DNA from: Deltaproteobacteria bacterium | GTDB lineage: Bacteria > Myxococcota_A > Polyangia > Haliangiales > Haliangiaceae | Direction: 5' to 3' | NCBI GenBank assembly: GCA_026129065.1 | Contig: JAHCIV010000172.1 | Coordinates: 1 to 18,313 of the forward strand | Length of the DNA stretch: 18,313 nt | Shown: in pieces, positions 7,752 to 10,700 of the stretch | Layout: each line of letters opens with the position of its first letter | Position numbering within the stretch: the stretch's first letter is position 1 | Position numbers and translations under genes: made by a program | The notes under the pieces: generated by a model | What the model was told of the DNA's origin: nothing | Database searches by the model: none | What the model saw: only the letters and a program-made list of their open reading frames with translations

Positions 7752-10700
7752 TGAGGTCGATGCGCTCGTTGATCGCCTGCGATCCGGGCTGCGTCCTCGG
7801 GACGAGCGGCTGCTCGCCGCCGAAGCCGCGCGCCTCGAGCCGCGCCTCGGCGACGCCCCACTGCACGAGCCACTCGCGCAGCGCCTGCGCTCGCTTCTCG
7901 CTGAGCTCCTGATCCTTCGCGGGGTCGTTGCCGGGCGGGATGTGCACCGCGATCCGCATGCGCAGGATCTCGGGGTGCGCGCGCAGGGTCGCGCCGACCT
8001 GGCCGAGGACGTTGAGCGAGTTGCGCCCGATCTTCGCGCCGTTCCACTGGATCGGGTCGAGCAGCTCGAGGCGATCGGGGCTGACGACGACGGCGCCGTC
8101 GCCGGCGTCGGGGCAGCCGTCGTCGTCCTTGTTGCCGTTGATCGTCTCGGGCTCGTTCGGGCACTTGTCCTGCGCGTCGGGGATGCCGTCGCCGTCGTTG
8201 TCGAGGTCGGGGCAGCCGTCGTCGTCCTGGAAGCCGTCCTTGTCCTCGGGCTCGTGCGGGCAGCGATCCGCGCGATCGAGGATGCCGTCCCCGTCGCTGT
8301 CGACGTCGGGGCGCTCGCCGCGCGACAGCGGCGGGAGCGCACGTGCGTTCGGCGCGAACGACAGCTGCACGACGCCGCGCAGCGCCGGCGAGCCGGCCGC
8401 GCTGGTCAGGCCGCGGCCGAGCGCGACGCCGAGGTCGAGCTTGCGATCGAGCCGCACGCGCACGCCGCCGAGCCACTCCGACGGCGCGAGCGTGTGGCCG
8501 AGGCCGCTCGCCGAGGGAGCCGCCTCGCCGAACATCTCGGCGGCGACCCACACGCGATCGCGGACGCGCGCCGACGCGCCGAGGCCCCACGCGAGGCCGC
8601 TCTTCTGCTCGAGGGTGCCGACCTGCGCCCGCTTGCGCAGGACCGCGCCGGCGTTCGCCGAGACGGTGATGCGCCCGTCGAGCGCCGGCACCAGGTACGT
8701 GCCGAGGGCGAACACGCGCGCCGAGGCGCCCTCGTTGCCGGTGAACGCGCCGTCGCTCGCCGTCGGCAAGGTGAGGGCGAACGCGCTCGCGACGGCGAGC
8801 CCCTCGCGCTTCCACGCGGCCACCTTCGCATGCAGCGTGAGGTCGCCGGCGGCGGTGGAGCGCGCCGGCGCCGTCGTGAACATGCGGTCGGGATCGCCGA
8901 GCGCATCGCCGCCCTGCATGTAGAGCGGCATGCGCGCGCCGACCTCGAAGCGGTCGAGGAACGCGTACGCGCCGCCGAGCTCGATCATCGTCGAGCGCGC
9001 CACGACCGCATCGTCGTTGATGAACGTGCCGTCGATCGACGCGCCCAGGATGAGCGGCCTGGTCGCGTGCGAGAGCACCGCGGTCGCGACCCAGTCGCCG
9101 TCGGCGCCGACCTCGGCGCTCTGCAGCTGGAAGCCGGTCGTCGTCGTCGCGGGCGTCGGGTCGAACGTCGACAGCACGACGTTGTCCGCGACCGCCACGC
9201 CTGTTGTCACCGTGACAACGGCGGCGGCTGCGAGGGCTCCACGGTGGCGGCGACGGCGGACGAGGAGCACGGCGAGCGCGGCGAGCGCGAGCGGGAGCAG
9301 GCCACCCCCGCTCGTCGTCGAGCATCCGCCGCCGCCGCGCGCGTCGATGGACACGGCGCGGCCGCGGATCCGGATCGTGGCCTGCGGGGCGGTGTCGTCG
9401 TCGAGGAACAGCGCGGCGGTGGCCGTGAAGTCGCCCTCGGTGGTGGGCGTGAACGTCACGCCGTAGGTCCGCGTCTGCGCCGGCGCGAGCTCGACGCCGG
9501 CCGGGGTGTCGTCGATCGCGAACACGCCGCGCGCGTCGTCGACCGCGATCTCGCGGATCGTGAACGTGATCGCATCGTCCATGCTCGTCACGGAGAGCGC
9601 GCCGGCGAGCGTGATCGGCACGCCGATGCTCGTGAAGCCGAGGTCGATGTCCGTGGGTGCGAACAGCACGCGGCGCGCGAGGCCGTTGCCGGTGAGGGCG
9701 ACGCGCGTCGTCACCGTCGGGCCGGGCGCCGGCGGGTCGAAGGCGTCGTGGGTCAGCTCGAGGAATGCGTCCGGCGCGGGCCCGGCCGCGGTCGGCGTGA
9801 AGCGGACCGGGAACTCGACGGTGCCGCCGCCGGGGACGTCGACGGGGTCCTCGCCGACGAGGTGCCACACCTCCGGATCGTTCGTGATCATCACGGCGGT
9901 CACGTGCAGCGTGGCCTCGCCGGTGTTCGTCACGCGGACGGGGCGCACCGGCGCCGACGGACCGGGGTTGCGGAACGTGTCGGGGAACACCGGCGTCTCG
10001 ACGACGCTGAGCACGCGATCGATGCCGCGCCCCTGGACCTGGATCATGCCGAGCGCGGGTGCGCCGAGGACGCCGGCGATCGCGTGCGTGATCGTGAACC
10101 GCTCCTCGGAGCCGGCGGGCGCGGCGGCGGTCGGCTTGTAGCTGATCGCGATGTCGACGTGGTCGGTCGGCTGGAGCGTCGTCGTGCCGGCCGGCAGCGT
10201 GAACGTGAAGCTCGGGTTGTCGGGCGTGCGCGCGAAGCCGGAGAGGTCGACGGGAGCGTCGCCGGTGTTCGTGATCGTCAGCGTGCGCTGCGCCGCCGGG
10301 CCCTGCACGTCGACGGCGCCGAAGTCGACGGTCGCCCCGGGGGCGAGCGCGAGCGTACCGCTCGTCGCCGTGCCGGTCAGCGCGACGGTGCGCGTCGGGT
10401 TCTGCGCGAGGTTGCTCGTCACCGTCAGCGTCGCGGCCATCGGACCGGTGCGGTTCGCGGGCGCGGCGCGGACGGTGACCTCGAGCACCTGGTTCGTGGT
10501 GAGCGTCTGCGGCAGCGTCACGTCGGTGCCGCCCGTGCCGCACGCGGTCTGGCGGCGGACGCGCGACACCGTGAATTCGCCGGTCGCCGTCGGTGCGGTG
10601 GGGGCGATCGCGATGGGGTTCGCGATCGTGACCGCCGCCTGGTCGGTGTTGACGATGCAGAACGTTCGCGTCGCCGTCTGATCGAAGCGTACGTTGCCGA

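Follow-up and report, generated by a model that had tools for sequence, protein, structure and literature searches.

An internal MYXO-CTERM motif followed by a signal-peptide-like segment joins an adhesin-like protein and a TraB-like module in one conserved gene of Kofleriaceae

Contig JAHCIV010000172.1 of a Deltaproteobacteria bacterium assembly (GCA_026129065.1), analysed over its positions 1 to 18,313 and called the window below, carries on its minus strand one long gene in which an adhesin-like repeat region, an internal MYXO-CTERM motif, a signal-peptide-like segment and a TraB-like outer-membrane module follow one another in a single reading frame. The fusion is almost certainly real and conserved, and it is likely old, since its junction is conserved across homologues. 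Comparison with related genomes suggests that the fused form is not a rarity but the majority state in Kofleriaceae, where it occupies a conserved locus. The gene is probably an old single-gene version of a two-gene surface module, consisting of a MYXO-CTERM adhesin and a TraB-like anchor, which is found across Myxococcota and has TraA/TraB as its prototype. The full processing model proposed below, in which one polypeptide would give two envelope proteins, is likewise considered probable.

The likeliest start of the gene is the ATG at 12798, which is directly followed by a canonical signal peptide and gives a protein of 1688 aa. The longest open reading frame (ORF) begins at a GTG at 12906 and encodes 1724 aa. 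A preliminary description of this DNA, made from the sequence letters, had given the frame 1690 aa, a length that neither start reproduces. It had also reported a junction without a stop codon, and this stands, as there are no stop codons in the ORF 7732..12906 and a direct reading of the minus strand over 9100..9460 matches the ORF translation exactly. The G+C content at third codon positions (GC3) is 0.92-0.99 in one phase from ~7800 to ~12600, and since this phase is constant and undisturbed at the junction, both halves are coding in the same frame. A scan of 7500..13300 found no promoter-like sites and one terminator-like site, the number expected by chance.

Strong hydropathy (Kyte-Doolittle 15-residue mean of at least 1.9) occurs in only three segments of the 1688 aa, at residues 4-30, 1164-1181 and 1188-1204, which correspond to the N-terminal signal peptide, the MYXO-CTERM helix and the signal-peptide-like segment, respectively. 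Around the second of these, the protein reads GGGGC(1159)STTS (Cys1159 at 9324..9322), continues with a 17-residue helix (aa 1164-1180, 9309..9259) and then has RRRRHR. This is the tripartite layout of a Gly-rich box with an invariant Cys, a helix and an Arg-rich tail, and it was the same in all fused and split homologues inspected. A 64-aa fragment (9229..9420) scored 27.6 bits with TIGR03901 (cut-off 20) and 29.1 bits with TIGR03382 (cut-off 15.85), and the whole protein scored 20.0 and 21.8 bits, respectively. The extreme C-terminal placement that defines MYXO-CTERM is absent here, as 504 residues come after Arg1184; the same motif is terminal only in split orthologues.

This internal location, together with a whole-protein TIGR03901 score exactly at the cut-off (20.0 vs 20), would be compatible with a motif that no longer works as MYXO-CTERM and persists as a mere hydrophobic linker from an ancestral fusion. 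Such a relic is highly unlikely, given that every fused homologue inspected retains the invariant Cys, the Gly-rich box, the ~17-residue helix and the Arg cluster and that the fragment score is well over the cut-off. Moreover, tripartite signals work internally in other systems, as cited in PMC11980579, and the myxosortase MrtX tolerates the C-terminal extension of TraA-FLAG. The preliminary description held that a conserved fusion would mean that the motif is not MYXO-CTERM. That rule is unsound, since the motif is recognised by the models and shares homology with the terminal MYXO-CTERMs of split orthologues.

Residues 1181-1204 have the apparent layout of a Sec type I signal peptide, with RRRRHR as a putative n-region, an uncharged h-region and AVA followed by Asp. 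This segment is colinear with the N-terminal signal peptides of split TraB-like genes, such as MIRRAGLAAALLLIAAPARA ahead of DGVDL in locus L004, and the mature N-terminus ..FDPTP.. lies at the same position in fused and split proteins. The AlphaFold2 (AF2) model of the junction consists of two well-folded modules and, between them, the sole long low-confidence stretch, where a helix covers the MYXO-CTERM helix and a coil covers the signal-peptide-like segment. Low AF2 confidence is common for signal peptides, and the modelled junction fits the processing model proposed below but does not settle it. The order first described from the letters, a mid-ORF MYXO-CTERM motif and then a signal-peptide-like segment, is confirmed by the translation and by TIGR scores above cut-off. 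The further claim that the Arg cluster doubles as the signal-peptide n-region is supported as well. In the split loci L004, L001 and L002, the motif forms the true C-terminus of the upstream gene product and the AxA segment belongs to the true N-terminal signal peptide of the downstream one.

As also stated earlier, an in-frame GTG is found at 9270 (9270..9268); it encodes Val1177 within the MYXO-CTERM helix, and no Shine-Dalgarno (SD)-like motif was seen upstream of it. Translation might restart at this or another in-frame GTG or ATG in or near the helix to make a TraB-like precursor, while myxosortase would trim the full-length product to the adhesin. Initiation at Val1177 would yield a protein with a plausible n-region (LLVRRRRHR), h-region and AVA site, and 37 of 39 fused loci have in-frame ATG, GTG or TTG codons in the stretch from the Cys to the h-region. 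However, such codons are expected anyway from the Val, Met and Leu of a hydrophobic helix, their position is unconserved, and an SD-like motif lies upstream in only two of the 39 loci, the window not being one of them. Internal initiation would also leave the fate of the TraB-like part of the full-length product unexplained, and we regard it as improbable.

The C-terminal module matched the TraB model NF033763 over positions 51-498 of 522 (132.9 bits, E 8.4e-39). As the cut-off of this model is 700 bits, the module is a distant TraB homologue and not TraB. The OmpA-family module of the preliminary description was likewise recovered with Pfam (OmpA, TSP_3), and TraB-like is the more exact term. 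In the AF2 model of the module (mean predicted local distance difference test, pLDDT, 89.2), ~31 unstructured residues precede a beta-barrel, an unstructured TSP3 stretch and an OmpA-like alpha/beta domain. The predicted order of signal peptide, outer-membrane beta-barrel, TSP3 and OmpA-like domain is that of TraB-type proteins. The barrel is similar in fold to the FapF and COG4313 beta-barrels (PDB 5o65, 4rl8; template modelling score 0.68-0.71, normalised to the target), and the TSP3 plus OmpA-like part matches the periplasmic part of Capnocytophaga gingivalis OmpA by sequence (PDB 5wtl, E 1.8e-26). These are likenesses of single domains only, and neither 5wtl nor FapF/COG4313 is tied to a MYXO-CTERM partner.

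The N-terminal part begins with the signal peptide expected of MYXO-CTERM proteins, judged by rule, and matched NF012200 at 2e-83 in 10 stretches. Pfam matches in this region were ASH, HYDIN_VesB_CFA65-like_Ig and Cep192_D4, and the final repeat was modelled by AF2 as a beta-sandwich (pLDDT ~90). Neither PA14 nor the Cys-rich repeats of TIGR04201 were found in the N-terminal part by scans with Pfam and NCBIfam models. Directly upstream of the TraB-like module, therefore, the MYXO-CTERM of a TraA-type partner is present, but in place of PA14 and TIGR04201 the repeats are of the choice-of-anchor D / ASH type. Among the orthologues (loci L006-L054), the adhesin part spans ~330 to ~1500 residues at a constant junction and TraB-like module, so the number of choice-of-anchor D repeats is highly variable among species.

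A protein search with residues 1027-1688, which span the junction, listed 120 clusters. In 43 of these, the same internal Gly/Cys box, helix and Arg cluster are present and the protein continues for more than 300 residues beyond them. The fused clusters come mostly from Kofleriaceae metagenome-assembled genomes and soil metagenomes (35-66% identity), and the fused clusters and loci as a whole span 30-66% identity. Their junctions are colinear, reading FVDA[RH], GGGGC, the helix, RRRR, a hydrophobic run, A.A and then [D/E]..RNLDL.FDPTP.T..FQLQS.DVG. In a genome survey, 80 loci from species-representative genomes were taken from 563 tblastn-confirmed loci, and a locus was called fused when an upstream walk from the TraB-like match met an in-frame MYXO-CTERM 8-50 residues ahead of the mature N-terminus. 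At least 38 of the 80 species-level loci were fused, including two on multi-megabase long-read contigs (L008, L021). Fused genes also occur in the cultured isolates Myxococcus eversor and M. qinghaiensis and, by a looser criterion, in M. dinghuensis and Vitiosangium.

The junction of homologues keeps one order: the Gly/Cys box, the helix, 3-7 basic residues (median 4 in 80 fused homologues), 10-29 uncharged residues (median 15), a small-x-small site and the conserved mature N-terminus. The small-x-small site was found a few residues before ..FDPTP.. in 80 of 85 fused sequences. Ala occupied position -3 in 67 and position -1 in 66 of the 80, and Asp or Glu position +1 in 61; because the site was picked by rule, only the enrichment of Ala and of acidic residues is informative. 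One junction, that of L032, is an outlier, in which the stretch from the Arg cluster to the mature N-terminus is unusually long and contains extra basic residues and the tandem duplication GVLNLWGVLNLW.

The closest homologue among those listed, P0010, is syntenic, 66% identical and has the same fused junction. On its contig (JGI 3300056388) the fused ORF ends once the barrel is complete, and a separate ORF of 118 aa holds the OmpA domain; this downstream break is either pseudogenising or an assembly error.

The preliminary description had left three explanations for the merged frame: a genuine fusion between an adhesin-like repeat protein with a MYXO-CTERM and a module of the OmpA family, a recent loss of a stop codon, and a sequencing or assembly error. 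The first is supported by the conserved, uninterrupted junction. The same conservation, over at least 38 species-level loci and 43 clusters that include syntenic orthologues and cultured isolates, rejects the other two, and split and fused genes differ by reading frame and not by one stop codon. In general terms, an artefact or very recent lesion would be two overlapping genes merged by a sequencing or assembly indel or by a fresh mutation. Split orthologues do exist at the same syntenic locus (L004/L005, L018), a single base would switch the state, and an exact-sequence look-up with the 1688-aa protein found no matching record, so that the window assembly has no independent confirmation. Nevertheless, we consider such an origin barely credible. 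The fused form predominates both in the family and at the syntenic locus, it is seen in assemblies obtained independently from Illumina data, long reads and isolates, and P0010 repeats its junction. Within the window, Val1177 inside the helix is the only residue that could start a separate downstream signal peptide, and GC3 runs on undisturbed. Since only His-Arg parts the helix and RRRR from the h-region and AVA, all in one frame, a split state would need two compensating errors, and one indel would be insufficient.

At least 20 Kofleriaceae species-level loci share the gene order of a PEGA-repeat protein, BacA/UppP, FKBP, the adhesin/TraB-like gene, a ComF-like phosphoribosyltransferase and a 2OG-Fe(II) oxygenase. 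Together with the homologues found, this synteny places the window in Kofleriaceae / Haliangiales. A shared envelope theme is hinted at, because BacA and the PEGA protein are encoded by cell-envelope genes. The comparison of orthologous loci that had been proposed gave a mixed answer: most syntenic loci are fused, in line with fusion, and L004/L005 and L018 have two adjacent genes. In the window, the 3' end of the fused gene overlaps the convergent phosphoribosyltransferase gene by 20 bp (7732..7751), and a 20-bp overlap is likewise present in the syntenic L004 (7721..7740).

In split loci, the stand-alone TraB-like proteins are ~545-590 aa long and have their own N-terminal signal peptides, and a choice-of-anchor D gene lies directly upstream on their contigs. 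The adhesin and anchor genes overlap by 4-8 bp, and three junctions (L004, L001, L002) were read from DNA. In the fully syntenic L004, the upstream gene ends in GGGGCNAGSSGTGGLGLGLAALGVLRRRRARASRAVAS and its TGA overlaps the ATG (as ATGA) of MIRRAGLAAALLLIAAPARA, which is followed by DGVDLAVF; L018, from another species, has the same arrangement. In L001 and L002, the upstream gene ends in LLRRKRRRA and its stop overlaps GTGCGTAG, the start of MRSSAWFAAAALLASVDSHA, which precedes EPTRNIEL. This stop/start overlap indicates that the split state is a translationally coupled pair like traA/traB, which themselves overlap by 4 bases (PMC3325183). Judging from these junctions, a one-base frame change in the overlap is what would convert the split into the fused state or the reverse. 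As such a change joins the genes, the Arg tail of the first would become the n-region of the next signal peptide.

The phylogeny of the family was assessed via a neighbour-joining tree of the TraB-like module alone, with bootstrap support. Fused and split loci are mixed in three clades. The first (100% bootstrap) contains the split L001, L002 and L027 and the fused L010, L013 and L022. The second unites L004, L018 and L019 at 100% and joins them to the fused L009 at 69%. The third (97%) contains the fused L068 and L083 and the split L073, L077 and L080, with the fused L071 as sister at 100%. As far as this tree reflects the history of the genes, at least three independent transitions between the states are implied.

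The architecture itself is already known from Myxococcus xanthus. MXAN_5598 has been described as a probable two-gene fusion with an internal MYXO-CTERM, resembling TraA plus TraB, whose N-terminal part was proposed to be processed (Guo, Haft & Wall, mBio 2025, PMC11980579). In that paper, internal MYXO-CTERM cases are called rare and a signal peptide after the motif is not discussed. What is new is the frequency of fusions in Kofleriaceae, the switching between split and fused forms and the conserved signal peptide after the Arg cluster. Neither the TraA/TraB-like pairing nor the MXAN_5598 precedent had been recognised in the preliminary description.

MXAN_5598 and the window gene share the order of a large adhesin, an internal MYXO-CTERM, an outer-membrane beta-barrel and OmpA, and in the MXAN_5598 orthologues L068 and L083 the motif is also followed by an Arg cluster, a hydrophobic run and an AHA site before Gln. 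L068, from M. eversor, lies between ftsA and ftsZ and is assigned as an MXAN_5598 orthologue because of these flanks; its C-terminal part reaches 297.6 bits with the TraB model, and MXAN_5598-type and other Myxococcus paralogues reach only ~297 bits on NF033763. MXAN_5598 orthologues are thus characterised by the ftsA-ftsZ (dcw) location and CglD-like repeats, whereas the window gene has FKBP and phosphoribosyltransferase neighbours and choice-of-anchor D repeats. It is therefore not an MXAN_5598 orthologue and falls in a separate tree clade. As the two types form separate clades, each with split relatives, their fusions look independent.

Locus L077 (29..9773, Myxococcus sp. Y35) is a split paralogous pair, in which a 2603-aa CglD-like protein ends in a MYXO-CTERM (GHGCSTGGAGTFAPLALMLLAYPLRNRLRRTGRPHTPAD before the stop codon) and, after a ~120-bp spacer, a TraB-like gene with its own signal peptide follows. 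The possibility that L077 is a split MXAN_5598 orthologue in the dcw cluster was rejected, since ftsA and ftsZ do not flank it; the pair is a distinct paralogue in the split state.

The conserved signal peptide directly after the Arg cluster implies a model of two cleavages around a membrane hairpin. In this model, the N-terminal signal peptide would route the adhesin part via Sec, and the MYXO-CTERM helix would halt transfer, leaving RRRRHR in the cytoplasm. The second hydrophobic segment would restart translocation, so that the two helices form a hairpin in the inner membrane while both large modules lie in the periplasm. Signal peptidase I would cut after AVA (Ala1204) and free the TraB-like protein for insertion by the beta-barrel assembly machinery (BAM) and for peptidoglycan binding. 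Cys1159 would be lipidated, MrtX would remove the helix, and the type II secretion system would carry the adhesin to the surface of the cell. The products would equal those of the two-gene state, at a fixed 1:1 ratio of adhesin to anchor. We infer both cleavages from the sequence of the junction, and the second is favoured because a barrel with only ~31 unstructured residues before it could hardly stay on an inner-membrane helix.

Because the fusion would be topologically and functionally neutral, fused and split forms could interconvert repeatedly. We lean slightly towards this view of the helix, Arg cluster and signal peptide as a topologically neutral joint, which would permit free switching between a pair and a polyprotein, with the polyprotein as the usual form in Kofleriaceae and two proteases flanking a discarded hairpin. 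MrtX is known to cleave MYXO-CTERM also when a FLAG tag follows the motif, as in TraA-FLAG (PMC11980579), and mrtX orthologues are reported in all known Myxococcota genera.

The fusion may instead be real but uncut, giving a single envelope-spanning protein that is held in the inner membrane by its hairpin and has at least one degenerate processing signal. Cleavage at either site is a prediction, the AF2 junction has low confidence, and the only processing proposed for MXAN_5598 in the mBio paper is that of its N-terminal part, a second cleavage going unmentioned. This option is unlikely, since the confidently modelled barrel would have to leave the inner membrane for BAM and has only ~31 unstructured residues in front of it. 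Furthermore, lineages that are only 30-45% identical still retain both the Cys box and a small-x-small site followed by an acidic residue at +1, where relics would be expected to decay, and MXAN_5598 was detected in an M. xanthus membrane and outer-membrane vesicle proteome survey (PMC4158809).

Several points weigh against the two-cleavage processing of an old fusion as we propose it. The gene for the myxosortase, mrtX, is not in the 18-kb window. The internal signal peptide was called by rules and by homology to real N-terminal signal peptides, and the h-region of the window protein is only moderately hydrophobic (mean Kyte-Doolittle 2.09). To our knowledge, few bacterial examples are documented in which a natural internal signal peptide that follows a stop-transfer helix is cleaved. 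How many fusions and fissions occurred, and in which direction, is judged from a neighbour-joining tree of one module. Finally, some fused copies may be decaying, as the P0010 gene is broken downstream of its junction.

In TraA/TraB, the gene of a MYXO-CTERM surface receptor overlaps a gene for a protein with signal peptide, beta-barrel, TSP3 and OmpA, which is the arrangement of the split L004 and L018. The window module matches the TraB model nearly full-length, yet it is distant, and the N-terminal part lacks the domains of TraA named above. TraA and TraB act as a 1:1 complex (PMC3325183; bioRxiv 10.1101/2025.04.25.650704). Internal sorting signals are cited in PMC11980579 for LPXTG, which works mid-protein (Navarre & Schneewind 1994), and for a PGF-CTERM-like signal located away from the C-terminus in a Haloferax ArtA substrate (Abdul Halim et al. 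2017; the two are refs 45 and 46 there). As summarised in that paper, a motif, helix and basic cluster are still processed with polypeptide after them, as proposed for the window protein, but the enzymes (sortase A, an archaeosortase) and motifs are others, and the following sequence is not the signal peptide of a second protein.

If the model is correct, the locus would be a naturally occurring example, in a bacterium, of two envelope proteins obtained from a single gene at an enforced 1:1 ratio, and the family a ready comparative system for adhesin-anchor pairing. A comparable polyprotein, cytochrome b/c1 FbcH of Bradyrhizobium japonicum (Thony-Meyer et al., ~1989-1991), is reportedly cut at an internal signal peptide after transmembrane helices to give two proteins in fixed stoichiometry; it belongs to an unrelated family and is not known to carry a sortase-type signal. 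The fusion is Rosetta-stone evidence that the choice-of-anchor D MYXO-CTERM adhesins of Kofleriaceae work with a dedicated TraB-like, peptidoglycan-tethered barrel, and it extends TraA/TraB-type pairing well past outer-membrane exchange in Myxococcus. For annotation, an internal MYXO-CTERM with a TraB-like module should not be called a frameshift or be split, and the one- and two-gene forms should be treated as the same functional unit. The advance is incremental and does not reveal a new kind of system, but the two cleavages around a membrane hairpin form a concrete, testable model.

Table 1. Coordinates of the fused gene, its predicted parts and its conserved neighbourhood in the window
Feature	Position	Strand	Basis or remarks
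Whole fused gene	7732..12798	-	1688 codons plus stop 7734..7732; ORF list and translation, single constant GC3 phase
N-terminal Sec signal peptide, aa 1-26, then Ser (predicted)	12721..12798	-	Read from sequence; top hydropathy peak; rule-based call
Adhesin-like region, aa 27-1154	9337..12720	-	~10 choice-of-anchor D / ASH-type Ig-like repeats
Internal MYXO-CTERM motif, aa 1155-1184	9247..9336	-	GGGGC box, helix, RRRR; TIGR models and homology to C-termini of split orthologues
Basic cluster RRRRHR, aa 1181-1186	9241..9258	-	Predicted cytoplasmic loop; MYXO-CTERM tail and signal-peptide n-region
Internal signal-peptide-like segment, aa 1187-1204	9187..9240	-	AVA at -3..-1, Asp at +1; hydropathy peak and alignment with split genes
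Predicted mature TraB-like protein, aa 1205-1688	7735..9186	-	NF033763, Pfam, AF2
Beta-barrel	~9093..8356	-	AF2 and fold matches
TSP3 Ca-binding repeats	~8319..8101	-	Pfam TSP_3
OmpA-like peptidoglycan-binding domain	~8091..7738	-	Pfam OmpA
Synteny block: interval on the PEGA/BacA side	13227..16664	+	Conserved synteny block
Synteny block: interval	~12900..13207	+	Conserved synteny block
Synteny block: phosphoribosyltransferase	7026..7751	+	Conserved synteny block
Synteny block: interval	6185..~7100	-	Conserved synteny block

Elsewhere in the window, a partial Ser/Thr kinase gene lies at 3..1004 (-). Two further ORFs, 3813..~4450 (-) and 17276..18037 (+), have good coding statistics in the GC3 frame plot; the former had no Pfam match. 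The gene at ~1209..3791 (+) encodes a bacterial protein of 860 aa that is homologous to the eukaryotic major vault protein (MVP), with Pfam matches to MVP_shoulder (3.5e-25) and Vault_3. Against rat and human MVP structures, phmmer aligned query residues 484-783 to chain residues 465-786 (E ~1e-12), and the overall length of the protein matches that of MVP.

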